Positions 10,988 through 25,942 of a DNA stretch of 32,144 bases are shown here, one piece after another. The DNA comes from Spirulina sp. (GTDB taxonomy: Bacteria; Cyanobacteriota; Cyanobacteriia; Phormidesmidales; Phormidesmidaceae), in contig JBIPSI010000045.1 in assembly GCA_044070495.1 (NCBI GenBank), positions 1 through 32,144 on the forward strand, written 5' to 3'. Position 1 is the first letter of the stretch; every line of letters starts with the position of its first letter. The position numbers and the translations under genes are program-made. Below the pieces are notes generated by a model. That model saw nothing but the letters and a program-made list of their open reading frames with translations. It was not told the DNA's origin and searched no databases.

Positions 10988-11117
10988 CTGGTTGACTGGC
11001 AAAACTTGCGAGAACCCAGATCCGCCAAAGGGTCAGGAGACCTGACCCCTACATTATCCAAATCTTGTAGGGGCGCGGTTTCCGCGTCCGGCGCAGGATC
11101 TTTTGTCAGTCAACCAG
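10988..11117. mobile_element. 130-bp TIR-bounded element containing two divergent GTAG REP hairpins
   Basis: CTGGTTGACTGGCAAAA (10988-11004) and TTTTGTCAGTCAACCAG (11101-11117) are 16/17 complementary. Internal hairpins are GGGTCAGGAGACCTGACCCCTAC and GTAGGGGCGCGGTTTCCGCGTCC. Confidence 0.75.
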
Positions 11118-11161
11118 GGCCGTAAGTGTTGAGTATCGTTAATGAAACTTAGGTCGTAGGA

Positions 11162-11479
11162 TTGAGCAGCGATGTGCCCTACACCACGCTGCTCAATCAC
11201 CTGGTGCAGCGGCTATAGCTCAACGGCCTACAGGATGAGACCAATCTACCCCTTTCCCTGGCGTTGCGGCGCTTAATTGTGCCGCCCGATGCAGCCTTGC
11301 CCGATGCGGCGAAGTTGGTGTTGGTTCAGGCTAACGAGCAAAGCGAGTCGGCCTTTCAAGCCATCCCCAGTAGCCTGGAAGCTATACTAATCAGCAGGTT
11401 TCCCCAATTCACTACCGAGAAGATTCCGGCTACGCTAGATCTCACGCGGATGGGGCGGCCTTGGCGGATTGGCGGTTGA
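11162..11479 (+). pseudogene. Rpn-family/DUF2887 nuclease remnant (C-terminal half)
   Basis: LSSDVPYTTLLNHLVQRL*LNGLQDETNLPLSLALRRLIV...LEAILISRFPQFTTEKIPATLDL resembles DUF2887 (VQRLYL...IETILVYKFPQLSREEI.AML). It has an in-frame TAG and lacks the N-terminus. Confidence 0.6.
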
Positions 11480-11611
11480 CGCCTCCGGTGACGGGGGAGC
11501 GAGGCTAGGGTGGTGCAACGAATCGTAATGATTTTTGTGAAGGCAGAATGAAGCAAGTTGGGCAGAATGGGGATAGTTGCTCCCTAATGTTCTTGTAACT
11601 AAGCCCGCCCC

Positions 11612-11740
11612 ATGTCGGATACGGTTATCCAGGTCGAAAATCTTGGCAAAAAATACATCCTGGGCCACCAGCAGGAGGGGCATTCGCGCTATGGGTGGCA
11701 GGATGTGATTTTGGGCTGTTCATTCTGTCGGGTTAGATGA
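11612..11740 (+). pseudogene. Orphan 5' stub of wzt
   Basis: MSDTVIQVENLGKKYILGHQQEGHSRYGWQDVI versus MGDTVIQVENLGKRYILGHQQEGNSRYVALRDVI at 12819 (69/81 nt identical over 27 codons). Its TGA overlaps the epimerase ATG (ATGA). Confidence 0.85.
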
Positions 11741-12735
11741 AGGTACTGGTTACAGGAATTGCAGGCTTCATTGGCCATGCGTTAGCTACTCGATTGTTAG
11801 CTGATGGCATGACAGTATACGGTATTGACAATCTAAACGAATACTACGATATTCGGCTTAAGCAGGCTCGTCTAAAGCGGCTGATCCAGCATGAGCGATG
11901 TACATTTTCAAAGATTGATGTTTTTGACCGCGACGAGATTTTTAGGGTTTTTCAATACAACCAGTTTGACTATGTCATTCACCTGGCAGCTCAGGCTGGA
12001 GTTCGCTATTCTTTAGATAATCCATCGGCCTATAACGATAGTAACTTGGCTGGTTTTTTGAATATTTTAGAGGGATGCCGCCACTTCTCACCTAAGCATT
12101 TTGTTTTTGCTTCATCCAGTTCTATCTATGGTGCAAATATTAAAATACCTTTTTCAACACATGATTTTACCGATCATCCCATTTCCCTCTACGCAGCGAC
12201 TAAGAAAGCGAATGAGTTGATGGCTCATGCCTATAGTCATCTTTATCAAATTCCAACGACTGGACTTAGATTTTTTACGATCTATGGCCCCTGGGGTAGA
12301 CCTGATATGGCCTATTTTAAATTCGTTGATGCCATCGCTAATGATCGTCCCATTGAGGTATTTAATGATGGCAAAATGAGGCGAGACTTTACCTACATTG
12401 ATGATGCGGTTGAGGGCATTATCAGAGTGATGGATAAGCTTCCTAGCCAGGTGAATGTGGATTACCAAAGTCGGAGTGAAGCGCCATACAAAATTTATAA
12501 TATTGGCAATTGCAGACCTGTGGAGATTTTGCGTTTTATTGAGGTGATTGAAGAGGCAATGGAGAAAAAAGCGCAAATTGTGATGAGGCCGATGCAGCCA
12601 GGAGATGTGGTGGAAACCTATGCCGATGTTAGCGATCTGGAGAAAAATACAGGTTTTTCACCGAGTACATCTATAGAAACGGGGATTAAGAATTTTGTGA
12701 AATGGTATCGGGAGGAATGGTGCCCGATACCATAG
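11737..12735 (+). CDS. NAD-dependent epimerase (UDP-glucuronate 4-epimerase type)
   Basis: TGIAGFIG, HLAAQAGVRYS, ASSSSIYG, YAATKKANELMAH, RFFTIYGPWGRPDMA and QPGDV. Confidence 0.92.
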   Translation: MKVLVTGIAGFIGHALATRLLADGMTVYGIDNLNEYYDIRLKQARLKRLIQHERCTFSKIDVFDRDEIFRVFQYNQFDYVIHLAAQAGVRYSLDNPSAYNDSNLAGFLNILEGCRHFSPKHFVFASSSSIYGANIKIPFSTHDFTDHPISLYAATKKANELMAHAYSHLYQIPTTGLRFFTIYGPWGRPDMAYFKFVDAIANDRPIEVFNDGKMRRDFTYIDDAVEGIIRVMDKLPSQVNVDYQSRSEAPYKIYNIGNCRPVEILRFIEVIEEAMEKKAQIVMRPMQPGDVVETYADVSDLEKNTGFSPSTSIETGIKNFVKWYREEWCPIP

Positions 12736-12818
12736 AGAGATGATCTATTTTCCAAAAGGGCTTACCCTTAAATGGCTTGATGATGACTTGGTTTTGAACG
12801 ATGGCTTCGGGTGTGATC

Positions 12819-14105
12819 ATGGGTGATACGGTTATCCAGGTTGAAAATCTTGGCAAGCGATATATCCTGGGCCACCAGCAGGAGGGTAACTCTCGCTATG
12901 TGGCATTGCGGGATGTGATTTCTGATGGGGCAAGGTCTGTGGTGCGGCGGCTGCGGCATCCGGGGAAGCGCCTGCCTAGGCCCAACCAGGAGGAGTTTTG
13001 GGCGCTGAAGGATGTTTCTTTTGAGGTGAAGCAGGGTGAAGTGGTGGGAATTATTGGCCGCAATGGGGCGGGCAAGTCTACGCTACTCAAGATCCTCAGC
13101 CGGATTACGGAGCCGACGGAGGGCCGGATTAAGCTGCGTGGTCGGGTGGCGAGTTTGTTGGAGGTGGGCACGGGGTTTCACCCAGAGCTTACGGGGCGAG
13201 AAAACATTTTTCTCAATGGAGCCATCCTGGGGATGAGCCGGGCGGAGATTAACCGCAAGTTTGATGAAATTGTAGAGTTTGCAGAGGTATCTCGTTTTTT
13301 GGATACGCCTGTGAAGCGGTATTCCAGCGGCATGTATGTGCGGCTGGCCTTTGCGGTAGCGGCCCATCTAGAACCAGAAATTTTGGTGGTGGATGAGGTA
13401 TTAGCGGTAGGGGATGCAGCATTTCAAAAGAAATGTATGGGAAAAATGGGAAATGTTGCACAAGAAGGCCGCACTATTTTATTTGTTAGTCATAATATGA
13501 GCATTCTTCAGGAGCTAGTACAAAAAGGCATTTGGCTAGATGATGGACAGATTCGATTTAGTGGAGATATTAAGACCGCAATTTCAAACTACTTAGCTTC
13601 AGGATTAAATTTTTCCGACTATAATGTCGATCTCAATAATCATCGAAATCGATTGCCAGGAATGCGAAAAATCTTGAAATCGATTTGTCTTAAAAGTAGA
13701 GATGGCTTGTTAACGCAAGAATTTGGTCAGTCTGATGAGATCTGTATTGAAATAGAGTATGCCGCTTCACAGGAAGTATCACTATCAGGAGCGGGTTTTA
13801 TTATCTCTAGTATTGAAGGGGTGAGAGTAGCCAGCTTCAATACCTATATGGAGAAACAGCAACCATGGAAAATTCCATCAGCAGGTAGAATATTTTTCTC
13901 TGTGCCAGCGTGTCAATTCACACCAGGAAATTACTTCATTACGTTTTCTTTGGGATCTCACCCACTCAAGTTAGAGGATAAAATAGAAAACTGCATTAGT
14001 TTTTCAATTGTATCAACAGATATCTATAAAACAGGCTATTTATTAACAAAGTCAGACGGGGTGGCAGCGATTACTGCAAGGTCAGAAATCATTTCTAAGG
14101 TATAG
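12819..14105 (+). CDS. wzt: Polysaccharide ABC exporter ATP-binding subunit with C-terminal Wzt_C binding module
   Basis: FWALKDVSF, GRNGAGKSTLLK, LLEVGTGFHPELTGREN, YSSGMYVRLAF and VDEVLAVGD, plus a ~170-aa beta-rich C-terminal extension (..PGNYFITFSL). Confidence 0.92.
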   Translation: MGDTVIQVENLGKRYILGHQQEGNSRYVALRDVISDGARSVVRRLRHPGKRLPRPNQEEFWALKDVSFEVKQGEVVGIIGRNGAGKSTLLKILSRITEPTEGRIKLRGRVASLLEVGTGFHPELTGRENIFLNGAILGMSRAEINRKFDEIVEFAEVSRFLDTPVKRYSSGMYVRLAFAVAAHLEPEILVVDEVLAVGDAAFQKKCMGKMGNVAQEGRTILFVSHNMSILQELVQKGIWLDDGQIRFSGDIKTAISNYLASGLNFSDYNVDLNNHRNRLPGMRKILKSICLKSRDGLLTQEFGQSDEICIEIEYAASQEVSLSGAGFIISSIEGVRVASFNTYMEKQQPWKIPSAGRIFFSVPACQFTPGNYFITFSLGSHPLKLEDKIENCISFSIVSTDIYKTGYLLTKSDGVAAITARSEIISKV

Positions 14106-14109
14106 AATA

Positions 14110-15357
14110 ATGAGGTTAGATAAACCAAATCCTAGAATTTTGCTTGGGCAATTTAAACATCGCCTTATGTTAAGAGTAAAGCACTTTTATTCGCCGCATC
14201 AATTAAATAAATTTGAGTCGGACTTGAAGAGAATTTCAAGTCAACCAGACTTTGGGATTTCAAAAATTATCGAATCAGCAATTGACTACACTGAGAAGCT
14301 AAGGTATCGGCAGAAGCCCTATGGCCAGTACTTATATAAACAATCTGGCAAGCGACCAATTCTTTATGCGTCCGTATTTGCGGCTCTTTTTCGTCATCTT
14401 GTAAATGACTTAACAAGAGTTAGCAATGCGCAACGTGAAGAATGGGCTAATTATATTAGAAGTTACCAATGTGCAGATGGCCTATTTCGTGATCCATTAG
14501 TTGCAAATGATATTGCTGAGGTGGAGGATTGGTGGGGTTGGCGGCATTTAACTGTTCTATCTCTGATGGCCCTAAATGCTCTTGACTCATATCCAAACTA
14601 CTCCCTCAATTTCCTCGAGCCTTTTGATAATCCGTCAAAGGTTTCACATTTCATAGACGACCTGGATTGGGGTAAGTCTGTTTCTTTCACAAGCAACAAA
14701 GTTCAAAATTATGTTGCATCACTACAATACGCCAGGGATTTCTTAGGATATCAAAGCTTGGACAAGTCAGTAAAAGAGTTCTTAAATCAAATCTCTTCAA
14801 GAGCCAATCCTGAAAATGGGCTGTGGGGTTCAGGATTAGAAGATAAAGACTGTGCTTTGTCTGAAGGGATTCAAGCTGGATACCATTTTTGGTTATTATT
14901 CTGGTATGAAGGCATTGAAATTCCTTATCAGGATAAAGTATTTTCTTCTCTCCTTCGCTCACAAAATAAGTATGGTGGATTCAACTTAAAGTCACCTTAC
15001 GCATCAGCATGTGAGGATATTGACTCTTTGTATCCAATGATAGAAATCTCTCTTAGAAACGTTCATTTTCGCGATGCCAGTTTATCTTCAGCGAAATTAG
15101 CGATTCCGTTCATACTAACTAATTTTAATCGAGATGGTGGAGCATGTTTTGTGAGAGGAAAAGAGTTTGTGTATGGACATCCATTGATGAAGTCTTCTAT
15201 AAGTCAAAGCTCTATATTTGCTACGTGGTTCAGGACTCTTAGTCTGTCATATTGTATTAACTTAATAAGTATATGTGAAGGCAAGAAAAATCCATTTAAC
15301 TTCAGATACTTAGCATGTCCTGGATATCAATTAAAATTGAGTAATTACAATACTTGA
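14110..15357 (+). CDS. Hypothetical protein with prenyltransferase/squalene-cyclase-like repeats
   Basis: Periodic QxxDGxF-like motifs after helices: IRSYQCADGLF, RANPENGLW, LLRSQNKYGGF and ILTNFNRDGGA. AT-rich and only 4 nt after the wzt stop. Confidence 0.6.
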   Translation: MRLDKPNPRILLGQFKHRLMLRVKHFYSPHQLNKFESDLKRISSQPDFGISKIIESAIDYTEKLRYRQKPYGQYLYKQSGKRPILYASVFAALFRHLVNDLTRVSNAQREEWANYIRSYQCADGLFRDPLVANDIAEVEDWWGWRHLTVLSLMALNALDSYPNYSLNFLEPFDNPSKVSHFIDDLDWGKSVSFTSNKVQNYVASLQYARDFLGYQSLDKSVKEFLNQISSRANPENGLWGSGLEDKDCALSEGIQAGYHFWLLFWYEGIEIPYQDKVFSSLLRSQNKYGGFNLKSPYASACEDIDSLYPMIEISLRNVHFRDASLSSAKLAIPFILTNFNRDGGACFVRGKEFVYGHPLMKSSISQSSIFATWFRTLSLSYCINLISICEGKKNPFNFRYLACPGYQLKLSNYNT

Positions 15358-15389
15358 AAAATGAAGCCAGCAAGAGAGCTTAAAGTACA

Positions 15390-16961
15390 TTGATTAACTT
15401 TGAGGAGAAACTTGTGAATTCCCAAAAAATGGATTCCTTTTTATCTATCAAAACCCACATGACAAGTGCGGAACTTTTGCTTCTTAAGGATTTAGTTAGT
15501 AATTTTAATTTCGAGTCAAATGTTGTTGAGATTGGCAGCTATCTAGGTGCTAGTACTTGCTCTTTAGCTAAAGGAGTTAAGCGACAAGGTGGAAAAGTCT
15601 ATGCTGTTGACACATGGACAAATATGGCAATGAGTGAAGGAGTAATAGATACATTTGATCAGTTTTTAGAAAATATTGAGCCTTATAAAGACATAATTCA
15701 TCCCTTAAAAGGTTTGTCAGAAGAGATAGCAAAGAATTTCGATGTGCCGATTGATCTACTTTTTATTGATGGAGATCATTCCTATGAGGGTGCATATTCT
15801 GATCTCAAGAACTGGTTGCCTAAAGTAAAAGATCTTGGGATAGTAGTTTGTCATGATTTTAATTGGGCAGAGGGCGTAAGAAGAGCTATTAGAGAATTAC
15901 TTGCTCCTTTGCAGATCGATGGAGGACGAACTTTAGATGGGTTATATTGGACGCGAATTCTGAATAAAAAAGAAAATATAGACCCGCCTATTAGTGTTTC
16001 AATTGCCATTCCTACGTATCAAAGATCTGATCTTTTGATCGAGGCTATTGATAGTATATTGCGGCAATTTGAGGATAAGAGCTTTGAAATTTTAGTGATG
16101 GATAATGATTGTGATCCTAAAGTTGCAGAAAAAATAAGTAATCAGTTTGGAAGCTTGGCAGATCAAGTTAAGTATGTACCTGTACCTAACCTGGGCCTTC
16201 ATTATGGGCGAAACCAAGCAGCAATTGAAAGTAAAGGGAATATTATTGTTTTTATTGATGACGATGTTATTGTTCCGCCAGGTTGGCTAAAAGCCATCTG
16301 TGCCCCCTTTGATAACCCTCAAGTTGGTGCCGTTGGTGGCAAAACCCTACCTCAATGGGATGCCCCACCACCTGACTGGTTAGAAGCTGTACCGAAAGAT
16401 TATTTTAGTCTTTTAGACCTAGGCGACATTCAGCGAGAGATGCAATGGCCAGAAACGCCCTACGGCTGCAACATGGCCTATCGTCGAGAACTCATCCTAA
16501 CCCTTGGTGGATTTCCCCCTGATGGGGTTGGTGGTGGATGGATTGAATGGTGGCGAGGTGATGGCGAAACTGGCTTTGCAAAACGTGTGTACGACGAAGG
16601 CTTCAAAATTATCTACAGCCCTGAAGCATGGCTTTATCATCGCATACCTGCCAAACGTCAAACCTTAGAGTTCGTGCGGCGGCGAGCTATTAAAGGTGCG
16701 ATTAGCAGTGCCTATAGCGAACTTAAGTATAGCCCTGAGAGAAAGTTTTTACTGCCAATTCACATTTTCAAGCATGTTGTAAAAGCTGCCATTGCCGGAT
16801 CTAAGCGCCTAGTTACTACACCTAAAGGCATTCAGTCTTGGCTCAAGCATGATACTCTTTGCGTCCATCATCTTATTTCTGCCCTTTACAAAACCCGGTT
16901 TCTCATTGATCCTCAGCTTAGAAAATGGGTTTACAACACGCAGCATTGGGATAAGCCATAA
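15390..16961 (+). CDS. Class I SAM methyltransferase (Methyltransf_24)-GT2 fusion
   Basis: VVEIGSYLGAST, YAVDTW and DLLFIDGDHSYEG, then SIAIPTYQR, FIDDDV and GCNMAYRR. Start uncertain (TTG 15390, GTG 15414 or ATG 15429). Confidence 0.85.
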   Translation: MINFEEKLVNSQKMDSFLSIKTHMTSAELLLLKDLVSNFNFESNVVEIGSYLGASTCSLAKGVKRQGGKVYAVDTWTNMAMSEGVIDTFDQFLENIEPYKDIIHPLKGLSEEIAKNFDVPIDLLFIDGDHSYEGAYSDLKNWLPKVKDLGIVVCHDFNWAEGVRRAIRELLAPLQIDGGRTLDGLYWTRILNKKENIDPPISVSIAIPTYQRSDLLIEAIDSILRQFEDKSFEILVMDNDCDPKVAEKISNQFGSLADQVKYVPVPNLGLHYGRNQAAIESKGNIIVFIDDDVIVPPGWLKAICAPFDNPQVGAVGGKTLPQWDAPPPDWLEAVPKDYFSLLDLGDIQREMQWPETPYGCNMAYRRELILTLGGFPPDGVGGGWIEWWRGDGETGFAKRVYDEGFKIIYSPEAWLYHRIPAKRQTLEFVRRRAIKGAISSAYSELKYSPERKFLLPIHIFKHVVKAAIAGSKRLVTTPKGIQSWLKHDTLCVHHLISALYKTRFLIDPQLRKWVYNTQHWDKP

Positions 16962-16982
16962 CATTCATAGAACCTAAGCAAC

Positions 16983-17885
16983 ATGTCTCTGAAGCAGCGA
17001 CTAACTCCTTGGATGCCACCAAAACTACTCAACCTTGGCGAAGCCATGGTCGGTAAAAATTCCTGGTTAGCTGTTCAAGGCTATCTCAAGGGAGGCCAAA
17101 CTCCTTGGAGTCGTGGTTATACACCCTACAAAAAGCAGTTTATAGGGCAGGCTCTTCAAAACCCTGAACTATTAGAAATTTTTAGCCAAGGCAAGCCTCT
17201 ACCCCAAAGCTACGGCTATGCCTTAGATGAGCGCTGCGTTGAATATCCATGGCTCTTCACCCATTTACCTGAAGCCGCTAAAACCATTCTAGATGCCGGA
17301 TCTATTCTCAACTTTCCCTATCTTTTAGATCAACCTTATTTTACAGATCGGCAACTGCATATCGTAACGCTTGCTCCTGAAGAAGAATCTTTTTGGGAAA
17401 GGGAAATTTCCTATATTTTTGCCGATCTACGAGAGCTGCCGCTTAGGGAAAACTACTACGATACCGTTCTTTGCCTATCAACCCTAGAACACGTCGGATT
17501 AGATAATCGGCTATACACCCGTGACAATCGCTATCATGAGTCTAGCGCAGAAGACTATAAGCTTGCTATGGAAGAACTGAGTCGTGTTCTCAAGCCTGGT
17601 GGTTCTCTTTTTATCAGTGTACCTTTCGGAAAATACCAAAACTTTGCCGAATTTCAGCAATTTGATAGTGCATTACTAGAGAAGGCCATTCAAGCCTTTG
17701 GCCCCGCCGAGTCCGTTGACAAAACTTTCTTTCGATACACTGATCAGGGCTGGCAAATAGCCACAGAAACCGAATGCTCCAATTGTGAGTATATGCACTG
17801 GTTTCTGCCAACCCCAGAAAAGCCGGACGCTCCTGATAAAGCTGCCGCTGCCAGAGCCGTCGCTTGTGTTCATATCCGCCGCTAA
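16983..17885 (+). CDS. Class I SAM-dependent methyltransferase
   Basis: ERCVEYPW, ILDAGS, ADLRELP, YDTVLCLSTLEHVG and RVLKPGGSLFISVPFG. Confidence 0.85.
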   Translation: MSLKQRLTPWMPPKLLNLGEAMVGKNSWLAVQGYLKGGQTPWSRGYTPYKKQFIGQALQNPELLEIFSQGKPLPQSYGYALDERCVEYPWLFTHLPEAAKTILDAGSILNFPYLLDQPYFTDRQLHIVTLAPEEESFWEREISYIFADLRELPLRENYYDTVLCLSTLEHVGLDNRLYTRDNRYHESSAEDYKLAMEELSRVLKPGGSLFISVPFGKYQNFAEFQQFDSALLEKAIQAFGPAESVDKTFFRYTDQGWQIATETECSNCEYMHWFLPTPEKPDAPDKAAAARAVACVHIRR

Positions 17886-18374
17886 ATGCCGTTTGTAAGA
17901 GTTCCCGCTATGGTATCCGTCAATCCTACGACAACGCCTGCACCCGTCCAGCAAATCACTCACGATAACGAACTCCTAGCCCTGATTCTCTCCCACCGCT
18001 TTACCGAGCCAGGGATTCACTTCTTTACCCCCAACGAGCTATCCCAGCAGCTTGCCTATATGAAATACGATGTCGGAAAAACCATTCCGGCCCACGTCCA
18101 CAACCCCGTCCATCGGGACGTGTTCTATACCCAAGAAGTGCTATTCATCAAAAAAGGTAAACTGCGGGTCGATTTTTACAGCAAAACCCAGGATTATCTA
18201 GAGAGCCGCGTGCTGGAGGCTGGCGACGTGATTTTGCTCATCACCGGAGGCCATGGCTTTGAAGTGTTGGAAGACCTAGAGATGGTTGAAGTGAAACAAG
18301 GCCCCTACGTCGGCGACCAAGACAAAACCCGCTTTGAGGGCATTTCCGCAGACCAGGCCACCATCACAGACTAA
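17886..18374 (+). CDS. Cupin-fold sugar-nucleotide modification protein
   Basis: IPAHVHNPVHR..TQEVLFIKKGKLRVDFY and GDVILLITGGHGFEVLE..EVKQGPY. Start may be ATG 17910. Confidence 0.8.
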   Translation: MPFVRVPAMVSVNPTTTPAPVQQITHDNELLALILSHRFTEPGIHFFTPNELSQQLAYMKYDVGKTIPAHVHNPVHRDVFYTQEVLFIKKGKLRVDFYSKTQDYLESRVLEAGDVILLITGGHGFEVLEDLEMVEVKQGPYVGDQDKTRFEGISADQATITD

Positions 18375-18379
18375 CCCCC

Positions 18380-19495
18380 ATGGCATTTATCCCCGTCAAC
18401 GAGCCAGCCCTCAACGGCAACGAACGCCAATACCTGCTGGAATGTCTAGATACTGGCTGGATTTCCTCCGAAGGCCCCTTTGTAGAGCGGTTTGAGACGG
18501 AAATGGCCCAGCGGGTGGGGCGACAGTATGGTATCGCCGTGGCCAATGGATCGGCGGCTCTAGATGTAGCCGTTACGGCTCTGGGGCTGGGGCCAGGAGA
18601 TGAAGTCATTCTACCCACCTTCACGATCATTTCCTGTGCGGCGGCCATTGTGCGGGCCGGGGCCAAGCCCGTCGTCGTTGACGCCGACCCCATCACCTGG
18701 AACATGGATGTAGGTCAAATTGAGGCTCGCATTACCCCCCAAACCAAAGCCATCATGGTGGTGCATATCTATGGCCTTCCAGTAGATATGGATCCGCTGC
18801 TGGCCATCGCCCAGCGACACAACCTCGCCATTATCGAAGACGCTGCCGAAATGCACGGCCAAACCTACAAAGGCCAGCCCTGCGGCAGTTTTGGCAACAT
18901 CAGCACCTTCAGCTTTTACGCCAACAAACACATCACCACGGGCGAAGGGGGGATGGTACTCACGGACGACCCAAACCTGGCAGAGCAATGCCGTTCCCTG
19001 CGTAACCTTTGTTTTCAGCCTCAGCAGCGCTTTGTCCACCAAGAACTCGGATGGAACTTTCGCATGGGTAACCTACAAGCGGCCCTCGGCGTAGCGCAAC
19101 TTGAACAACTGGATCACTTCATTCAACGCAAACGCGACATGGGACAGCGTTACACCGAGGGTCTAGCCCATATCCCCGGATTACAGTTACCCCTCGCCGC
19201 CACCGATTACGCGGATAACGTCTACTGGGTCTACGGAATAATCCTCAAAGACGAGGTTCCCTTCGATGCTGCCGAAGCCATGCAGCGACTCAAGGCCAAA
19301 GGCATTGGCACCCGCCCCTTCTTCTGGCCCATGCACGAACAGCCTGTCTTTCACAAAATGGGCCTCTTTGAAGGTGAAAAATATCCCATTGCCGAGCGAT
19401 TGGCCCGCCGAGGATTTTACATTCCCAGCGGTCTGGGTTTGACCGATACCCAGATTGAGCAAGTTCTGATCGCAGTACAAGAGGTGATGGAATGA
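18380..19495 (+). CDS. DegT/DnrJ/EryC1/StrS aminotransferase (perosamine synthetase-like)
   Basis: GWISSEGPFV, ANGSAAL, VHIYGLPVDM, IIEDAAE, FSFYANKHITTGEGGM and GWNFRM. Confidence 0.92.
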   Translation: MAFIPVNEPALNGNERQYLLECLDTGWISSEGPFVERFETEMAQRVGRQYGIAVANGSAALDVAVTALGLGPGDEVILPTFTIISCAAAIVRAGAKPVVVDADPITWNMDVGQIEARITPQTKAIMVVHIYGLPVDMDPLLAIAQRHNLAIIEDAAEMHGQTYKGQPCGSFGNISTFSFYANKHITTGEGGMVLTDDPNLAEQCRSLRNLCFQPQQRFVHQELGWNFRMGNLQAALGVAQLEQLDHFIQRKRDMGQRYTEGLAHIPGLQLPLAATDYADNVYWVYGIILKDEVPFDAAEAMQRLKAKGIGTRPFFWPMHEQPVFHKMGLFEGEKYPIAERLARRGFYIPSGLGLTDTQIEQVLIAVQEVME

Positions 19496-20262
19496 CCGTC
19501 TTTGATGCCTACGCCCAGTACTACGATTTGCTCTATCAAGACAAAGACTATCAGGCAGAGGCCAACTTCGTCATTAGCTTAGTCAACGCCCATGCGCCGA
19601 AAGCCAAAACGATTTTAGAGCTAGGCTGTGGTACAGGACGCCACGCAGAATATTTTGTAGACGTAGGCTATCAAGTTTGGGGAGTCGAGAAAAGTCCTGA
19701 GATGATAGCTCAGTGTCAAAAGCGGTGGCTACAGCTTCCAAAAGATAAACAACAGGCTTTCAATCCGGTAGAAGGCGATCTTAGATTGATTAATCTAGAT
19801 CAGAAATTTGATGTCGTTATTGCTTTATTCCATGTTATCAGTTATCAAACAGCCAATCAGGATATTCGACGCGCATTTGATAATGTCCGAAATCACTTGA
19901 AGCCTGGAGGTCTTTTCATCTTTGACTTCTGGTACGGCCCAGCCGTTTTAAGCGAAAAGCCTGAAATTCGTGTCAAGCGCCTAGAAAATGATCGCCTCAA
20001 AGTCATTCGCATTGCTGAGTCAAATCTTTTATTCAATGAAAATATTGTCACTGTAAACTACGAAATTTTCGCTGAGGATAAAATTCAGTCAAATACCCAT
20101 GTTCTCCATGAATGCCATCGGATGCGATATTTCTTTCTGCCAGAACTAACAGCTTATCTAGAATCTGCCCAACTCTCACAGATTGAATACATGGCTTGGT
20201 TAACTGGAGAAATTCCCAGCTTAAGTACCTGGGGAGTATATGCGATAGCGAGATTACCATGA
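19492..20262 (+). CDS. Class I SAM methyltransferase (sugar N/O-methyltransferase type)
   Basis: YAQYYDLLYQDKDY..EA, LELGCGTGRHA, HLKPGGLFIFDFWYGPAV and HRMRYFF. ATGA overlap with the aminotransferase stop. Confidence 0.88.
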   Translation: MTVFDAYAQYYDLLYQDKDYQAEANFVISLVNAHAPKAKTILELGCGTGRHAEYFVDVGYQVWGVEKSPEMIAQCQKRWLQLPKDKQQAFNPVEGDLRLINLDQKFDVVIALFHVISYQTANQDIRRAFDNVRNHLKPGGLFIFDFWYGPAVLSEKPEIRVKRLENDRLKVIRIAESNLLFNENIVTVNYEIFAEDKIQSNTHVLHECHRMRYFFLPELTAYLESAQLSQIEYMAWLTGEIPSLSTWGVYAIARLP

Positions 20263-21398
20263 CGGTTAAGAAGGTTGCTTTTATACACTTCCCCCATAAT
20301 CCAAGTTCGGCACGATTAGAAACCATGCCGTTTGCTTTAAATACAGTCACCTCTCTAGAGAAGATTGGCTGGAAGATTGATTTGTTTCTGTGGGAAGGAC
20401 AAAGTCATCACTACGACAATCTATTTTCTGATGGCATCAAGGTCTATTATCAGAAACTTATTGGTGTCAGAAAGCTGCGCTACCTAGGGCCATCGCGCTT
20501 CTGGATGCAGTTTCGAGTTTTGCCGAGTCGCTATGACTACGTTTTCGGAGTCGGCCAGATTGGCGCATACATTGCTGCATTGATTGCACAATCTAGCCAT
20601 TGCCCCTGGATTTATATGAACGATGAGTTTGCTAGCTGCTGGGATGGTGAGAGCATCCATCGTGGCTGGGCTGCTCACGAAATTAATGCCGCTAAAAGTG
20701 CGGCCATCATTATTGCTCCTGATGAACAACGGATTCCCGAACTCAAAAAAGAGCTAGGCTTACCAGATAAAAAATATGTTGCTTTGCCAAATATTCCATC
20801 GCCACGATATCCTGTAAAAGAAATTAACTGGCGCAGCCTCCTAGGATTACCTGAAAATGTAATTCCGTTCCTCCACGCTGGCTCAGTAGCGGATTGGGCT
20901 CAAATTCCAGAACTGCTATCAAGTGTTCCCTACTGGCCTGAGAATACAGTTCTTATTATTCACAGTCGATCCAGTCAGGGGCTAGAAGATTACAAGCGTA
21001 GCCTTGCCCATTTAGATGTTCCAGGTCGTGTCTACTGGAGCATGAGTTCGCTAGATGAAGCTAGCCTTAATTCTTTAGTTTACTTCTGTGCAGGTTCATT
21101 TGCCCTATATCGAAACACTGGCCCCAACATTGATTTGGCTGGATTTTCTTCTGGGAAGCTAATGCGAAGTATTGCCTATGAAAGACCAGTGATTGCTTCT
21201 CGATTAACTTCCTTTAAGTTTATTGAAGATTTTGAGTTAGGAGTTCTAGTCGATCATCCTGCCGAAATTCCAGCAGCCATTGATAAAATTTCTACTAACC
21301 CTGCTATGTTTTCTCAAAACTGCTCTCATTTCTGCCGTTCAAAAGTTTCCTTTGAAAAGAGTTGGGCTGATTTCTTCATTAACCTGACAGCAATCTAA
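20259..21398 (+). CDS. GT-B fold (GT4-like) glycosyltransferase
   Basis: FLHAGSV, SSGKLMRSIAYERPVIAS and FIEDFELGVLV. The ATG at 20259 overlaps the upstream TGA. Confidence 0.7.
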   Translation: MTVKKVAFIHFPHNPSSARLETMPFALNTVTSLEKIGWKIDLFLWEGQSHHYDNLFSDGIKVYYQKLIGVRKLRYLGPSRFWMQFRVLPSRYDYVFGVGQIGAYIAALIAQSSHCPWIYMNDEFASCWDGESIHRGWAAHEINAAKSAAIIIAPDEQRIPELKKELGLPDKKYVALPNIPSPRYPVKEINWRSLLGLPENVIPFLHAGSVADWAQIPELLSSVPYWPENTVLIIHSRSSQGLEDYKRSLAHLDVPGRVYWSMSSLDEASLNSLVYFCAGSFALYRNTGPNIDLAGFSSGKLMRSIAYERPVIASRLTSFKFIEDFELGVLVDHPAEIPAAIDKISTNPAMFSQNCSHFCRSKVSFEKSWADFFINLTAI

Positions 21399-21423
21399 CC
21401 AGAAAGTCAGTATCACCCATAGC

Positions 21424-21481
<58 letters not shown>

Positions 21482-21483
<2 letters not shown>

Positions 21484-21604
21484 GACCCTATCGGTTTACA
21501 TCCTCATCCCCGTCCACAACCGCAGGGTCGTTACCTTGGCCTGCCTAGAGATTCTCCATCGCAATGACGACCTAAGCCTGTTGCATCAGTACAAGCAGAA
21601 ATAG
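21482..21604 (+). pseudogene. Orphan 5' stub of the GT2 gene at 22735
   Basis: MTLSVYILIPVHNRRVVTLACLEILHRNDDL versus MPPSVYILIPVHNRKAVTLTCLETLQRHGDL (75/93 nt identical). Homology stops at about 21574. Confidence 0.85.
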
Positions 21605-21812
21605 GCGTATCCATTCCCACTTTTATCGCCTCTCGCATCCCCGGTACCGACAACAGATAGAGCGTTTCTTGAATTGCTGATCAGTCGCTTTCAGAGAGTA
21701 GAACAGCTTTAGTATGCTCTCCAGCAATCAAAATCGGCTGATGAGACTGGTTAACCGTTTCAATGAGTCCCGATAAATTTTGGTGTGCTTCATTAACAGA
21801 TAGTGTAGCTAT
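21578..21812 (-). pseudogene. Phd/YefM antitoxin pseudogene
   Basis: (I)ATLSVNEAHQNLSGLIETVNQSHQPILIAGEHTKAVLLSESD*SAIQETLYLLSVPGMREAIKVG. The start appears as ATA and the conserved Trp as TGA, while the RBS AGGGGAG is intact. Confidence 0.85.
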
Positions 21813-21824
21813 GTCAGCTCCCCT

Positions 21825-22664
21825 TTATGGGCTGCTTTCTAGCCCTTCCACAGCGTCCGCATAGCTGTAGATTTCAATACCCAGCGCCTCTGCCACAGGC
21901 CGCGCCCGATCATCCACCATCGGCGAAATCACAATCTTGCGGCTAACAGGTCGTTGTTCGTGCTTTTCGTAGAAATCTACCTTGCGGCCAAAGCTATACA
22001 TTCCAGCCTTATCGATAGAAGACTTGATTTCGCAGGCAATGGTCATCCCGTTTTGGATAATCAAATCCAATTCCACCTGGTCAGGACGACCAAACACTTC
22101 TCCCCCATGGTCGTAAAGATTGAGGTTCAACACTTCTACCCCAAAAGACTCCGTCAGAATACCTGCTAGAGCATTGCGAAAACTTGCTTCAGAGGACAAC
22201 CCCCACCGAGATCCCAAAGCACCGATAGTACTCTCATATCGTTTATCTAAGCGTCGATTTTCGGCCTGTTGATCGTCCCACCGACGATTTTGGTCAGCTC
22301 TTTCCTCTTCCCACCGACGATTTTGGTCAGCTCTTTCTTCTTCCCACCGACGATTTTGGTTGGCTCTTTCTTCTTCCCACCGACGATTTTGGTCGGCTTT
22401 TTCCTCTTCCCACTTACGGTTCTGTTCATCCCACTTGCGATTTTGCTCATCCCACTTGCGGTTTTGTTCGTCCCACTTGCGGGCTTGCTCCTCCCGATCC
22501 CGCTGTAGTTCAGATAGGATGCGGTCAAATTTGATGTCGGCCTCCCGCCGCCCCATGTAAAAGTCGGAAACCGTTTGCAAGATAAATTCTCTCACCTGGG
22601 GTTCTTGGGCCATTAACCGGGGGAGTTCTTGCCGAATGATGGCAATGATTTCAGACTGCTCCAT
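21825..22664 (-). CDS. DUF3782-type PD-(D/E)XK nuclease-domain protein with repeat coiled coil
   Basis: IGALGSRWGLSSEASFR, VFGRPDQVELDLII...CEIKSS and KIVISPMVD. Start taken at MEQSEII (22664). Confidence 0.8.
   Translation of the reverse strand: MEQSEIIAIIRQELPRLMAQEPQVREFILQTVSDFYMGRREADIKFDRILSELQRDREEQARKWDEQNRKWDEQNRKWDEQNRKWEEEKADQNRRWEEERANQNRRWEEERADQNRRWEEERADQNRRWDDQQAENRRLDKRYESTIGALGSRWGLSSEASFRNALAGILTESFGVEVLNLNLYDHGGEVFGRPDQVELDLIIQNGMTIACEIKSSIDKAGMYSFGRKVDFYEKHEQRPVSRKIVISPMVDDRARPVAEALGIEIYSYADAVEGLESSP
22258..22494 (-). repeat. Intragenic tandem repeats: 21-bp (DEQNRKW) and 33-bp (EEERADQNRRW) units
   Basis: EEQARKW (DEQNRKW)3 (EEE[KR]A[DN]QNRRW)4 DDQQAENRRL. Confidence 0.9.
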
Positions 22665-22734
22665 CGTGGGCTGTACTGTGGGATGCTCACTATTATAGTC
22701 AGGATGGCTTACGCATCGAATCACCCAGCCGCCC

Positions 22735-23622
22735 ATGCCCCCATCGGTCTACATCCTCATCCCCGTCCACAACCGCAAGGCGGTCACACTCACCTGCCTA
22801 GAAACCCTTCAGCGCCATGGCGACCTAGACCGCTATCAAGTGGTGGTGATTGACGACGGCTCCACCGATGGCACCACCGAAGCAATTCAGGCCCGCTTTC
22901 CCCAGGTCACCCTTCTCAAAGGCGATGGCAACCTCTGGTGGACGGGGGCTATCGTCAAAGGGATGACTTACGCCTACGACCAAGGGGCCAACTTTTTTGT
23001 TTGGCTTAATGATGACACATTGCCTTTAGCCGGAACCCTGACAACGCTAGTTAATCACTGCGTTCAAGCTCCCAAACGCCTAGCTGCCGCCCAGTGCTAC
23101 GCCGACGAAGCCCTCACCCAACCTACCTATGGCGGCCAGCTTAAACACCCGCTCTCCATTGAATTAGTCGCCACCCCCCAGGGCCAAACCCGTCCCTGCG
23201 ACTGCATGAGCGGCAACCTTGTTTGCCTGCCGTGCTCCATCGTGGATGATATCGGCTATCCCCCTGCCGACCGCCTGCCCCACTGCCGTGCCGACATTGT
23301 CTATACCCTGACCGCCAAACGGGCTGGATACGAACTCTCGGTGCTAGGAAGTGCCGTCGCCCTGGCTGTCCTCAACCCCTTCGACCAAGGCTGGGCCTTC
23401 AGCGAGATTCCCATGGGCCAGCGGTGGCGACAGTTGAGCAGCCTTAAGTCCAACATCCACCCGCCCACCTACTGGGTATATTGCAAGGCTGTATTTGGCT
23501 GGCTTGGCCCCTTGCTCTTTGTTGCGGTTTATCTAAAATTATTGGGATTTACCATCGCTCGGTTCATCTTGCCCTTAGCCTGGTTAAAGCAACTCAAAAC
23601 CCTCAAGGATCGGGCACGATGA
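22735..23622 (+). CDS. GT2 glycosyltransferase
   Basis: ILIPVHNRK, VIDDGSTDGT, GDGNLWWTGA, WLNDD and MSGNLV. Confidence 0.9.
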   Translation: MPPSVYILIPVHNRKAVTLTCLETLQRHGDLDRYQVVVIDDGSTDGTTEAIQARFPQVTLLKGDGNLWWTGAIVKGMTYAYDQGANFFVWLNDDTLPLAGTLTTLVNHCVQAPKRLAAAQCYADEALTQPTYGGQLKHPLSIELVATPQGQTRPCDCMSGNLVCLPCSIVDDIGYPPADRLPHCRADIVYTLTAKRAGYELSVLGSAVALAVLNPFDQGWAFSEIPMGQRWRQLSSLKSNIHPPTYWVYCKAVFGWLGPLLFVAVYLKLLGFTIARFILPLAWLKQLKTLKDRAR

Positions 23623-23650
23623 ACCGAATGTTGATTCCCACTCTGCAACC

Positions 23651-24517
23651 ATGAGCGGCGTTTTTATCCTCATCCCCGTCCACAACCGCCGAGACACCAC
23701 CCTGCGGGGGCTAAGCCAGCTTTACCAAGATCCCACCGTGCAGCAATGGCCAGAGTTGCATGTGGTAGTAATTGACGACGGTTCCACCGACGGTACCGCC
23801 GAGGCCATCCAGCAAGCGTTTCCCCAGGTCAAAATTCTGTCAGGCGACGGCAATCTATGGTGGACAGGGGCAATGTGCTTCGGCATGGAATACGCCGTTC
23901 AGCAAGATTGTGAAGCGGTGATCTGGCTAAATGACGACTGCCCCCCCACCCCAGGCAGCCTAGCCGCCATGCACCGGGCCTCTCAGCAGCAGGGCAACGC
24001 CATCATCGGAGCCGCTTGCTACATCGCAGAAACCCACACCCTTAAACCCACCGGAGCCAAAGGCCGCACACCTATGTATGCTCAACCAGGGGACTTAGTG
24101 CCCGTCGATGAAATGAGCGGCCATTGTGTCTATATTCCAAGGGCCGTTATGGACAAAATTGGGTTTCCAAATGTCCGTCGTTTCCCCCACTACCACGGCG
24201 ACAGCAGCTACAGCCTACGTGCCACCCGCTCCGGCTTTTCCGCCTACCTATTAGGCGATGCCCAGGTGATGCATCCCGGCATGATTAAGGCTAAACCGGA
24301 GGATTTTGTTGACTTCAAGTCAGCTTCTCTGATCCAAACTTTTCATCAAGTTTTCCTGAGCCAGAAATCTCTTTACTATTGGCCTACCCAGTATTTTTAC
24401 AACGTCGAAAAATATGGCTATGGATTAGGCGTAGGAATCTTCCTCCTTAAACAAAGTCGATGGCTAGCTAAATGGCTATGGCTTACCTTATCCGTCCCCA
24501 AGGCGGTAGCCTCATGA
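23651..24517 (+). CDS. GT2 glycosyltransferase (paralog of 22735-23622)
   Basis: ILIPVHNRR, VIDDGSTDGT, GDGNLWWTGA, WLNDD and FPHYHGD. Confidence 0.9.
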   Translation: MSGVFILIPVHNRRDTTLRGLSQLYQDPTVQQWPELHVVVIDDGSTDGTAEAIQQAFPQVKILSGDGNLWWTGAMCFGMEYAVQQDCEAVIWLNDDCPPTPGSLAAMHRASQQQGNAIIGAACYIAETHTLKPTGAKGRTPMYAQPGDLVPVDEMSGHCVYIPRAVMDKIGFPNVRRFPHYHGDSSYSLRATRSGFSAYLLGDAQVMHPGMIKAKPEDFVDFKSASLIQTFHQVFLSQKSLYYWPTQYFYNVEKYGYGLGVGIFLLKQSRWLAKWLWLTLSVPKAVAS

Positions 24518-24562
24518 CTCAACCGTACTGGCTGAAATTGTTCGTGACCCACTGGCCAACTG

Positions 24563-24709
24563 CTGATTGCCTGCCCATCTCCAAAGTAGGTTGGGTGCAG
24601 CGAAGCGGAACCCAACACTCGCCGAGGATTTCAGACTTGTTGGGTTCTGCTATCGCACCGCCCAACCTACGAGAAATCAATGCTTTTCAGCGTTGTGTCA
24701 GTCAGCCAG
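24563..24709. mobile_element. TIR-bounded element carrying an inverted pair of GTAGGTTGGG REPs
   Basis: GTAGGTTGGGTGCAGCGAAGCGGAACCCAAC (24586-24616) and the inverted GTTGGGTTCTGCTATCGCACCGCCCAACCTAC (24639-24670). The ends are CTGATTGCCTG and TGTGTCAGTCAGCCAG. Confidence 0.7.
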
Positions 24710-24742
24710 GGCTAACTGACACACGAAAAGAAGTTCCCAGGG

Positions 24743-25825
24743 ATGAGTCAGGAGATGGGTAAGACGCTACTGGTCACGGGAGGCTCAGGGTTTATTGGTT
24801 CTGCGGTGGTGCGCTATCTCATCCAGCAAACGCCCCATACCGTCATCAATCTCGATAAGCTGACCTATGCGGGCCATCTCGAATCTGTGGAGATGGTGGC
24901 CAACCATCCCCGCTACCATTTTGAGCAGGTGGATATTTGCGATGGAGCCGCCCTCACTCGGATTTTTCAAACCTACCAACCTACGGCCATTTTACACCTG
25001 GCCGCCGAAACCCACGTGGATCGTTCTATCGATGGCCCTGCCGCCTTTATTCAAACCAACATCGTGGGTACCTACACCCTGCTAGAGGCTGCTCGCACCC
25101 ATTGGCAAACACTCGATGCCAAGGCCCGATCTCAGTTTCGGTTTCACCACATTTCCACCGACGAAGTCTTTGGCGATCTCGGCCAAGCAGGCGGCTACTT
25201 TACCGAAACTACCCCCTACGCCCCCAGTTCGCCCTACTCCGCCAGCAAGGCCAGCGCCGATCATCTAGTGCGAGCCTGGCACCGTACCTATGGTTTGCCC
25301 ATCCTGATTACTAACTGCTCCAACAACTACGGCCCCTACCACTTCCCAGAAAAGCTGATTCCCCTGATGATTCTCAACGCCCTGGAGGGCAAACCCCTGC
25401 CCGTCTATGGCCAAGGGGCACAAATCCGCGACTGGCTCTACGTGGAAGACCATGCCCGCGCCCTCCATACCGTGCTAACCCAGGGACAGCCAGGGGAAAC
25501 CTATCTGATCGGTGGCCATCAGGAAGTTCGCAACCTCGATGTGGTGATCGCCCTTTGCGACCTGTTAGAAGAACTTGCCCCCCAAAAGCCAGAGGGGGTA
25601 GCCCGCTATGCCGACCTGATTACCTTTGTCCCAGACCGTCCTGGTCACGACCAGCGCTACGCCATCGATGCCAGCAAAATTCAGCGGGAACTAGGCTGGC
25701 AACCGCAGGAAACCTTCGCCACTGGGCTGCGCAAAACCGTGGCCTGGTACCTGGCCCATCGCGGCTGGTGTGATCGGGCCTTGGCCAATACCTATAGTCG
25801 TCAACGATTGGGGCTAAACCCATGA
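24743..25825 (+). CDS. rfbB: dTDP-glucose 4,6-dehydratase
   Basis: [61 protein letters not shown] and [12 protein letters not shown]. Confidence 0.95.
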
Positions 25826-25914
25826 AAGGCATTATTCTATCGGGGGACTGGTACCCGCCTCCCTACGATCACCTAGGCATCCATAATCAATGGCTTCCCG
25901 TTTATGACAAATGA
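25822..25914 (+). pseudogene. rfbA: 5' stub of glucose-1-phosphate thymidylyltransferase
   Basis: ATGA-coupled to rfbB. MKGIILSG / shifted frame TGTRLPTIT / GIHNQWLPVYDK* matches RmlA MKGIILAGGSGTRLYP.T...SKQLLPVYDK. It ends at an ATGACAA direct repeat. Confidence 0.85.
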
Positions 25915-25942
25915 CAAAATGTTTTAATAAGGATCTCACCCC

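Follow-up and report, generated by a model that had tools for sequence, protein, structure and literature searches.

Displaced gene ends in a Spirulina surface-glycan cluster as probable scars of one-sided, homology-anchored gene capture

The surface-glycan (sugar-coat) gene cluster of a Spirulina strain contains broken gene beginnings that lie in front of unrelated genes. This poses the question how such displaced ends arise, and whether they are the product of a dedicated insertion system. The window analysed here comprises 32,144 nucleotides (Spirulina sp. GCA_044070495.1, contig JBIPSI010000045.1, positions 1-32,144, forward strand), with 11612..25914 in focus. The genome is 97% complete; its relatives are coded G0xx, and P0004 denotes a metagenome relative. 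Four 5' stubs are present in the window, derived from wzt (100 bp), GT2 (93 bp), rmlA (~90 bp) and GT61 (~55 bp). Three of them form direct repeats around an insert (wzt, 100 bp/1.1 kb; GT2, 93 bp/1.16 kb; GT61, ~55 bp/1.2 kb), and the repeats of wzt and GT2 occur in two genome copies each and are thus not multi-copy. Alignments to wzt, GT2 and the rmlA of G019 confirm the stubs that the initial annotation had placed at 11612, 21482 and 25822, and the one it held possible, at 24514, proved to be the 5' start of the GT61 gene at 25943. As it had also described, wzt and GT2 restart after 1.1-1.2 kb of unrelated cargo, no integrase is found in the 28 window ORFs (Pfam scan), and no inverted repeat bounds the wzt or GT2 cargo among the 25 longest of 345 repeat pairs. 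The sole transposase among the 28 scanned ORFs lies at 104-919.

The wzt locus comprises the following features:

11446..11611, + strand: region upstream of the resident wzt; colinear with G050's empty site (82% to G050:C1:2964810 onward, there leading into an intact wzt)
11612..11740, + strand: wzt 5' stub, an open 42-codon mini-ORF; homology extends to 11711, and its TGA overlaps the epimerase ATG (ATGA)
11737..12735, + strand: cargo, NAD-dependent epimerase/dehydratase (PF01370; ~40% GC; best metagenome relatives 64% identical)
12819..14105, + strand: replacement wzt (ABC ATPase plus Wzt_C; Pfam), apparently foreign to at least nt 231
14110..21398, + strand: variable glycan-biosynthesis block with methyltransferases, GT2 and DegT aminotransferase (Pfam)

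The stub (11612-11711) is 84.5% identical to the wzt at 12819 over 97 columns. In codons 1-27, 19 are identical, 5 differ synonymously and 3 non-synonymously; a decayed tail follows, in which 3 nt are lost. G050 has an intact wzt without an insert and hence represents the empty site. Over wzt nt 7-81 the stub matches it at 96% and the new start at 89%. Informative sites against G050 fall into 9 stub-like, 3 new-like and 1 common to stub and new copy; with G050 alone the 9:3 split is not significant (p=0.15), and G055 gives 6:5. A public contig also carries the empty site. It differs from the stub side at 1 position in 108 nt, whereas its wzt body and the new copy in the window disagree at 17 of 206 nt, out to 13049 (wzt nt 231). 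This empty allele is a single 314-nt contig of depth 2.7, and the two read runs look like one data set. Judged by these alleles, the wzt stub is the resident one and the restarted wzt is foreign. Since the stub side is near-identical to the empty allele while the body is not, the foreign tract appears to outrun the 100-bp stub, as read from this one low-depth contig. A dip in wzt identity at nt 81-180 was rejected as evidence of tract length, as other genome pairs show the same natural variability. The block at 14110..21398 was possibly acquired along with the new wzt. No near-identical piece is listed for it in the runs holding the empty allele, a weak observation given their patchy cover, and the absence of reads from runs X1 and X2 across 13.5-21.9 kb was not taken as proof of a foreign block. 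A metagenome search for a donor of the epimerase found none, the best match being 64%.

The same data bear on a true target duplication, in which both repeats would derive from the resident target (the 'long target duplication' reading). Published repeats of this kind measure 25-423 bp, many of them ~90-110, and often lie across start or stop codons (accessible text of PMC2853133); some remnants in our genome are 93-99% identical to their own gene, and the GT2 cargo is a PD-(D/E)XK nuclease-like gene, all of which would suit it. At wzt, however, stub and new copy have a single common difference against G050 and disagree at 12 sites, and it is the stub, rather than the new copy, that the empty allele matches. 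Moreover, most differences between stub and gene at wzt, MsbA-like, DUF3086 and HerA are synonymous. We consider a duplicated target decidedly unlikely.

The GT2 locus is organised in a similar manner, with cargo on the reverse strand:

21482..21574, + strand: GT2 5' stub, drifting; in canonical gene order with the upstream block
21575..21803, - strand: broken gene, presumably a Phd/YefM-like antitoxin; its end abuts the joint; 71 residues align at 63% identity with an 81-aa G019 ORF
21825..22664, - strand: cargo, DUF3782 / PD-(D/E)XK nuclease-like protein with coiled-coil repeats (PF12644, PF07788)
22735..23622, + strand: full GT2; 81% over 511 nt to an unlinked G005 locus, covering the GT2 start and the 110 bp before it

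The name Phd/YefM-like for 21575..21803 was drawn from reading its sequence and not from a library match; no toxin partner follows it. The stub (21482-21574) is 81% identical to the full copy at 22735 over 93 nt, so that the annotated stub-copy identity of 81-85% holds for both loci. The many synonymous changes annotated along with it are found at wzt and not at GT2, where 6 codons differ synonymously and 9 non-synonymously (for the stub against G050, 5 and 8, respectively). Nor do the sites mark the GT2 stub, as they do that of wzt, as the resident allele: informative sites against G050 are 6 stub-like and 9 new-like, and the unlinked G005 locus sides with the full GT2 at 14 sites and with the stub at 2. 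An apparent proximity of the stub to G050 (85 vs 81%) was rejected, the difference being due to unequal alignment lengths. The proposal that incoming DNA brought cargo and its own allele of the gene start, joined by homology downstream and by a break near the start of the resident gene, thus agrees with wzt, where the tract seems to extend beyond the stub, and draws no such agreement from the 6:9 split at GT2. A clean empty site turned up at wzt alone, and not at GT2 or GT61.

The right part of the cluster contains the two remaining stubs:

24514..24762, + strand: GT61 5' stub (~51-60 bp homology); an open 82-codon ORF runs through a MITE, and its stop overlaps the likely rmlB start (24755)
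24563..24718, no strand assigned: 147-bp MITE with 9-bp target duplication (156 nt, in frame), interrupting the GT61 stub at 24563
24755..25825, + strand: rmlB (dTDP-glucose 4,6-dehydratase; Pfam), 91% protein identity to G019; start set by the G019 orthologue
25822..25914, + strand: rmlA 5' stub, an open 30-codon ORF with 2+1-nt deletions; its stop lies 28 nt before the GT61 ATG
25943..27124, + strand: full GT61 gene (PF04577)
27090..27935, - strand: FkbM-type methyltransferase (PF05050), in the block replacing rmlA-C-D (G019 gene order)
27963..29171, + strand: conserved GT4 gene that closes the cluster on the right (73-89% DNA identity in 5/5 close relatives searched)

The GT61 stub matches the gene at 25943 in 8 of its first 16 residues and that of P0004 in 10 of 15, and at 3 sites it resembles another lineage's allele. 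No GT61 donor was identified (59 pattern matches in the genome contigs, none confirmed), and a search with the full GT61 gene did not find it in 52 other genomes of the genus. Of the 25 full-length MITE copies in the genome, 22 measure 148 nt, and the copy at 24563 is the sole one of 147 nt. The rmlA stub aligns over 25822-25911 with the intact rmlA of G019, with two small gaps (2+1 nt). Here there is no restart; the remainder of rmlA, together with rmlC and rmlD, has been replaced, and tblastn with the rmlA, rmlC and rmlD of G019 against the 97%-complete genome returned only paralogues of 28-37%. The conserved GT4 gene is a likely homology anchor. The suggestion that such entry leaves an operon intact does not hold throughout: an intact copy restarts at wzt and GT2, but rmlA was lost.

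To place these cases in their genomic context, we scanned the genome for local single-copy gene fragments. In the uncurated scan, 24 of 30 fragments lay at a gene terminus, and 20 of these 24 were displaced to the expected side (5' pieces upstream, 3' pieces downstream; binomial p=0.0015, uncurated rows). The terminal layout exceeds chance. Curation kept 2 of 8 rows with a 5' piece upstream (wzt and GT2); a second match of the GT2 stub, a ccmK/ccmO paralogue, an internal cas3 piece, two uninspected rows less than 130 bp apart and an uncertain 206-bp sulfatase row without a true start were dropped. Among rows with a 3' piece downstream, 8 of 12 were kept; those dropped were one on contig C14, an uncertain PTS row and two less than 200 bp apart. 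The GT61 and rmlA stubs, missed by the scan, and a stub on contig C35, classed only against an upstream paralogue, were added by hand, and the repeats of contig C54 were left out as part of a diversity-generating retroelement. This leaves 8 displaced 3' ends and 5 displaced starts.

The row on C14 was rejected as a displaced end because it is a 668-bp tandem duplication. That case, and the near-neutral pattern of the GT2 stub, speak for local tandem duplications that decayed while unrelated genes arrived between the copies later. Against this stand the wzt alleles, with a resident stub and a foreign restart, the other-lineage sites of the GT61 stub, and remnants that extend beyond the stop codon into the sequence of the former neighbour (in G005, G050, G067, G004 and G006). 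We agree with the initial annotation that the stubs are not decaying local duplications, an explanation we regard as highly improbable.

Stub and remnant lengths range from 43 to 218 bp with a median of 100. Ten of 20 fall within 93-118, a peak sharper than a uniform distribution (p=0.005), which is nevertheless compatible with a broad unimodal spread (p=0.08 for a lognormal, p=0.13 for a shifted exponential). Among 84 long local repeats, which by eye are intragenic repeats, whole paralogues and tandem blocks, no terminal remnant exceeds 210 bp. Within single genes, breaks occur at several positions: -51, -96, -100, -150 and -179 at uvrA, and -96, -108, -203 and -218/-219 (4-5 positions) at dnaE-N, compared across relatives. 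The joints are abrupt and often lie within ~30 nt of a cargo gene border; the donor searches for GT61 and the epimerase revealed no continuation beyond them. No motif common to the printed joints was apparent by eye, and HIP1 was rejected as a joint motif, as the window has no such site. The 41 flanking ORFs (Pfam) include XisH/XisI, UPF0175/DUF3368, RelE, DUF433/DUF5615, HEPN and Uma2, with 20 of 41 lacking a match; neither integrase nor transposase is found in these 41 (Pfam), nor an integrase in 105 ORFs around the genome's cases (NCBIfam).

The initial annotation had read a constant stub length as a hint of a dedicated cassette system that cuts ~90 bp into gene starts. Such a system would account for three of four window stubs at 90-100 bp, for the genome-wide peak and for joints close to cargo borders. 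Yet 3' remnants equal or exceed 5' stubs (8 vs 5), so the start-specific version is already largely refuted. A fixed length fares no better, given ~51-60 bp for the GT61 stub, the wide range of lengths and several breaks inside one gene. With neither a common joint motif nor a recombinase in the scanned cargo, and with a peak that fits a broad spread, we hold such a dedicated system to be very unlikely.

We instead propose, with fair confidence, that the stubs were left by gene capture of a one-sided kind, anchored by homology and closed by an illegitimate joint, with selection acting afterwards. DNA of a related strain would enter the cell, probably by natural transformation. ComEC and DprA are present in the genome; as 10 of 14 control genomes likewise have them, they are no proof of competence. 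RecA would then pair donor and recipient within a conserved gene common to both, leading to a crossover. As observed at wzt, the donor allele would replace the resident gene from the crossover to its terminus, carrying donor neighbour genes along. Finally, the free donor end would be joined without homology at a short, variable distance inside the resident gene; the joint's position is visible in the DNA, its enzymology is our proposal, and Ku was not found in the 97%-complete genome. The old terminus would thereby remain next to its former neighbour, forming a stub of 40-220 bp. Such a process would be symmetrical, leaving 5' stubs upstream or 3' remnants downstream, and repeated events would stack them, as at uvrA and dnaE-N. 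A joint further out would delete genes, as at rmlA-C-D. Termini would be favoured because inter-strain homology ends at gene borders and because joints that spare the anchor gene survive, and an upper length limit may arise since long repeats of near-identical sequence would be trimmed or lost by looping out. The route requires no recombinase encoded by an element. In laboratory experiments, homology-facilitated events mostly remove DNA from the recipient and seldom leave a repeat. One-sided capture leaves the length peak near 100 bp without account, and a foreign tract longer than the stub at wzt could also be obtained from two successive events.

A Campbell-type circle would offer another integrase-free route to the same layout and polarity. 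Here, cargo and one short copy of a gene terminus would loop out between the repeats in the donor, and a single RecA crossover would insert the circle into the same terminus of the recipient. Such a repeat-based cycle has been hypothesised for restriction-modification (RM) genes (PMC2853133, accessible text), and the same cassette with the same remnant length does recur in relatives (uvrA -179 in G000, G005 and G050; dnaE-N -108 in G000 and G067), although inheritance explains these shared lengths equally well. Under the circle, the foreign tract should not exceed the stub, whereas differences between wzt and the empty allele continue to nt 231; the circle is also unable to produce the rmlA replacement and leaves the first joint without account. 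We therefore consider it unlikely.

All four cargo-facing stubs are open mini-ORFs that end at or near the cargo start: an ATGA overlap at wzt, an 8-nt overlap at GT61, a stop 0-3 nt before the start on C35 and 28 nt before it at rmlA. In three window stubs, the indels sum to a multiple of three (3 nt at wzt, 2+1 nt at rmlA, the 147-nt MITE copy at GT61, whose length restores the frame). The GT2 stub, with its cargo on the reverse strand, shows free drift. We tentatively suggest that 5' stubs may be retained leader cistrons, in which the resident promoter, ribosome site and first 15-40 codons would pass ribosomes to the cargo by translational coupling. Together with the capture route, this might constitute a general, integrase-free plug-in into operons, although we rate it as rather doubtful. 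If it were true, foreign genes would be expressed immediately on landing in an operon. Our literature search, with most subscription papers outside its coverage, yielded no account of coupling stubs, nor of cyanobacteria in which toxin-antitoxin or glycan cargo sits in such a layout.

The layout as such has precedents, and nothing in the evidence calls for a dedicated machine. The origin of insertion with long target duplication has been open since its first description, and wzt indicates that one copy can be the resident allele and the other the donor's. A tract longer than the repeat, with two alleles, favours homologous capture from one side over a duplicated target. At the core genes uvrA and dnaE-N, as well as in the surface-glycan cluster, the scars also preserve the order in which genes were gained.

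Some integrative elements rebuild their target gene at its 5' or 3' end and so create a layout of stub, cargo and restored gene. Unlike such site-specific elements or integron-like cassettes, our cases have no integrase among the ORFs scanned in and around them, no fixed crossover site and several breaks per gene.

Closer is the 'insertion with long target duplication' of RM genes, for which Furuta, Abe & Kobayashi (2010) cite Nobusato et al. 2000. The layout is already in print there: the accessible text describes integrase-free inserts of <20 kb between direct repeats of >30 bp (25-423 bp), often across a start or stop site with the gene left intact, including operon insertions, a cyanobacterial case (Microcystis, 88 bp) and hosts that are mostly naturally competent (PMC2853133). 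Our cases are alike in repeat (>30 bp) and insert (<20 kb) size, in the absence of mobile-element genes from the inserts scanned and in the empty wzt site (G050, public contig). They differ in cargo, which consists of sugar enzymes, toxin-antitoxin-like pairs and DUF3782 and not of RM pairs; the three window inserts carry an epimerase, DUF3782 with a broken antitoxin, and rmlB. They further differ in that the copies are 77-99% identical and, at wzt, appear to be two alleles and not a duplicated target, that events are stacked at uvrA and dnaE-N, and that one event destroyed its target (rmlA).

In homology-facilitated illegitimate recombination, described in Acinetobacter, Pseudomonas stutzeri and pneumococcus, one homologous anchor and one non-homologous joint import foreign genes (accessible text of PMC2884548 and PMC5361080). 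The process depends on DNA uptake and RecA, and its joints frequently show microhomology of a few bases. The rmlA-C-D replacement corresponds to its insertion-deletion form, and the wzt foreign tract seems continuous with the anchor to at least nt 231 (one low-depth contig). In contrast, the joint here falls within the anchor gene, close to its end, and a repeat is left. The capture model that we favour has been proposed before for effector-immunity arrays in V. cholerae, where T6SS modules are displaced sequentially; Rhs/CDI orphan ends belong with them (PMC5361080, accessible text). As in the V. cholerae arrays described there, new modules lie beside a conserved anchor and older pieces are pushed outward, in order and without an integrase. 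Unlike in those arrays, housekeeping and glycan genes serve here as anchors, and their ends are swapped for equivalents at both 5' and 3' termini.

Contig C45, which forms the entire window, belongs to a 5.3 Mb genome that is 97% complete and whose cyanobacterial identity is shown by its phycobiliprotein and carboxysome genes. The GC content is 34-46% over much of the surface-glycan cluster versus 52-63% in most flanking DNA. Here, leftover 5' gene starts (stubs) lie upstream of inserted genes (cargo):

11.6-29.2 kb, surface-glycan cluster: epimerase, wzt, methyltransferases, GT2s, DegT aminotransferase, rmlB, GT61, FkbM, GT4
11612-11711, wzt stub; full wzt at 12819
21482-21574, GT2 stub; full GT2 at 22735
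24514, start of GT61 stub; full GT61 at 25943
25822-25911, rmlA stub

At wzt, stub and full gene are 84.5% identical over 97 columns; of codons 1-27, 19 are the same, 5 differ synonymously and 3 encode another residue. The relative G050 has an empty site: its sequence matches the stub and the 166 bp before it and runs on into an intact wzt. Over nt 7-81, identity to G050 is 96% for the stub and 89% for the new wzt start; 9 informative sites are stub-like, 3 are new-like and 1 is common to both copies (p=0.15 for the 9:3 split taken alone). The split against G055, another relative, is 6:5. Both listed public sequencing runs were compared with window 10500-28500. They hold the empty allele as one contig at depth 2.7, and the two runs resemble one data set. 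This 314-nt contig joins 11576-11683 to 12891-13096, skipping 1207 nt, with 1 difference in 108 nt on the stub side and 17 in 206 in the wzt body; the differences listed reach as far as 13049 (wzt nt 231). Five listed pieces from 22539 to 28438 have matches of at least 98.5% in these runs. A near-identical strain thus starts its functional wzt with the stub sequence, and the new wzt of the window is foreign well past the stub length. Two successive events are also a possibility for this longer tract. For the resident status of the stub, the run contig is stronger evidence than the G050 site counts. With a resident and a donor allele both present at wzt, a true duplication of the target is very unlikely, and a decayed duplication scarcely credible.

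Upstream of wzt, window 11140-11445 holds what is left of a broken member of a small gene family found at this position in several relatives. In some relatives wzm precedes wzt; in the window it does not adjoin it. A multi-copy hairpin repeat lies at 10988-11118, and a perfect 24-bp inverted repeat with a 12-nt loop at 8089-8148, between sigma-factor and FAD-oxidoreductase genes.

The two GT2 copies are 81% identical and differ synonymously at 6 codons and in the encoded residue at 9; either block could be the newcomer. Sites compared with G050 are 6 stub-like and 9 new-like, and the full GT2, together with the 110 bp before it, is similar to an unlinked locus in the relative G005 (14 sites versus 2). 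The stub continues the upstream block in the gene order usual among relatives. A TAAC/TATC tetranucleotide run (21419-21481) immediately precedes the stub. The DUF3782 gene contains 33-nt and 21-nt coding repeats (22240-22503) whose number differs between relatives, the proteins being 260-309 aa long. Beside the G005 GT2, only the first ~40 bp of DUF3782 are left before an unrelated gene (L109:11114-11222, G005:C228), possibly a further 5' stub.

The rmlA stub aligns with the intact rmlA of the relative G019, where the order is rmlB-rmlA-rmlC-rmlD-GT4. In the window, GT61 and FkbM occupy the place of rmlA, rmlC and rmlD, and the 97%-complete genome holds nothing beyond 28-37% paralogues of these three elsewhere, so that gene loss occasionally accompanies the exchange. 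The initial annotation's "possible" stub at 24514 proved real: its opening residues agree with those of the GT61 gene at 25943 (8/16) and of the metagenome relative P0004 (10/15). This fourth stub is shorter (~51-60 bp) and interrupted by a MITE with a 9-bp target duplication (24563-24718). The MITE belongs to a 148-bp family, distinct from the hairpin repeat, with 9-bp target duplications and 25 full copies; window 6424-6485 is grouped with these repeats. A first capture anchored in the conserved GT4 may have brought in rmlB-A-C-D, cut ~55 bp into the old GT61; a second with the same anchor would have brought the new GT61-FkbM, cut ~90 bp into rmlA. Two such captures would be one simple history for the cluster's right half, in the order that we infer here.

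Genome-wide, 2,973 genes of at least 600 nt were each compared with 6 kb on either side. The scan gave 387 hits (197 multi-copy repeats, 160 within another gene); of the 30 left, 12 were 3' fragments lying downstream of their gene and 8 were 5' fragments lying upstream, while 4 terminal fragments lay on the opposite side and 6 fragments were internal. Inspection retained eight 3' remnants (a TPR gene twice, selD, DUF3086, dnaE-N, HerA, an MsbA-like ABC gene and uvrA) and five 5' stubs, three of them added by hand and four in the window. Displaced ends thus occur at both gene termini, and 3' remnants are at least as common as stubs, which speaks against the targeting of gene starts initially proposed and makes a dedicated start-targeting system highly improbable. 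Most cargo for which the library gave a hit resembles toxin-antitoxin genes (XisH/XisI, UPF0175/DUF3368, RelE/RelN, DUF433/DUF5615).

Elsewhere in the genome, a conserved non-coding repeat of ~100 bp occurs three times around a polysaccharide export (wza/wzc) locus (C6:69362-69461, 70409-70508, 75605-75702). A decayed internal cas3' piece (C1:131949-132039) precedes an allophycocyanin/chlorophyll-binding gene block that is followed by intact cas3', and L056 (C54:7500-15000) carries a diversity-generating retroelement that comprises Avd, a reverse transcriptase and a template repeat; its two target genes are FGE-sulfatase-like.

Among 19 uvrA loci from relatives, picked partly for extra matches seen in an earlier search, four contain remnants (three in G050, two in G005, one each in G067 and G042), with breaks at -51/-52, -96, -100, -150 and -179 from the stop. 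At the uvrA 3' end (C44:4033-5204; L086-L088, L090), a hot spot, small gene cassettes are stacked in order, the newest adjoining uvrA, with 41-175 bp of old uvrA end left at each step. dnaE-N, a split intein gene, has displaced-end scars at its 3' end (C27:41258-43725; L174-L176, L184); a second 3' copy lies nearby in 6 of the 49 genus genomes with a match. Its breaks fall at -96, -108, -203, -218 and -219, the last two in two species. Several remnants extend beyond the stop into DNA directly 3' of the intact gene in other genomes, as a resident end that was pushed aside should do. Because one gene can be broken at several points, a site-specific crossover is ruled out. Integration of the cargo as a circle is unlikely.

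The 20 hand-curated break distances, which are partly non-independent, range from 43 to 218 bp around a median of 100, and 10 of them fall in 93-118. In post hoc tests they are tighter than uniform over 40-220 (p=0.005) and could have come from either a lognormal (0.08) or a shifted exponential (0.13) distribution. The preferred length of ~90 bp initially suggested therefore has some basis as a mode and fails as a constant. Many repeat lengths given in PMC2853133 also lie near 90-110.

The best-supported mechanism, and probably the correct one, is one-sided donor capture with a non-homologous joint inside the resident terminus. Donor DNA from a related strain would recombine in a conserved gene, the donor allele would replace the gene out to its terminus with donor neighbours attached, and the free donor end would be attached, with no homology at the joint, just inside the end of the resident gene. 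We infer the uptake route, the part of RecA, a joining enzyme and what limits the length; the genome encodes ComEC and DprA, and Ku was not found in the 97% recovered.

The 5' stubs might also act as coupling cistrons for their cargo, a tentative reading of open frames. The wzt stub has 42 open codons and runs into the start of the epimerase gene at an ATGA overlap, the GT61 stub has 82 with a stop overlapping the likely rmlB start, and the rmlA stub 30 with a stop 28 nt before GT61; a stub on contig C35 stops 0-3 nt before its cargo ORF. The indels are a loss of 3 nt in wzt, losses of 2 and 1 nt in rmlA and, in GT61, the only 147-nt MITE of the 25 copies; 22 are 148 nt, and 12 of these have the 9-bp duplication, which brings them to 157 nt and shifts the frame. 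Three frame-keeping sets would arise by chance at ~1/27 or less, in a small sample noticed post hoc. The GT2 stub, facing reverse-strand cargo, drifts (8 changed, 5 synonymous codons versus G050).

In the literature, of which our coverage is incomplete, we found no account of stubs as coupling cistrons or of glycan or toxin-antitoxin cargo with such a layout in cyanobacteria. Furuta, Abe and Kobayashi (2010; PMC2853133) report insertions that lack an integrase and are flanked by repeats of 25-423 bp. These repeats frequently extend across a start or stop site, the gene can stay intact, and one case comes from Microcystis. Homology-facilitated displacement has been proposed for ordered T6SS arrays (Kirchberger 2017, PMC5361080), and PMC2884548 summarises the one-anchor mechanism. 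Taken together, the displaced gene ends are real and well evidenced, and they are a variant of a known scar type, not a gene-start-targeted system.
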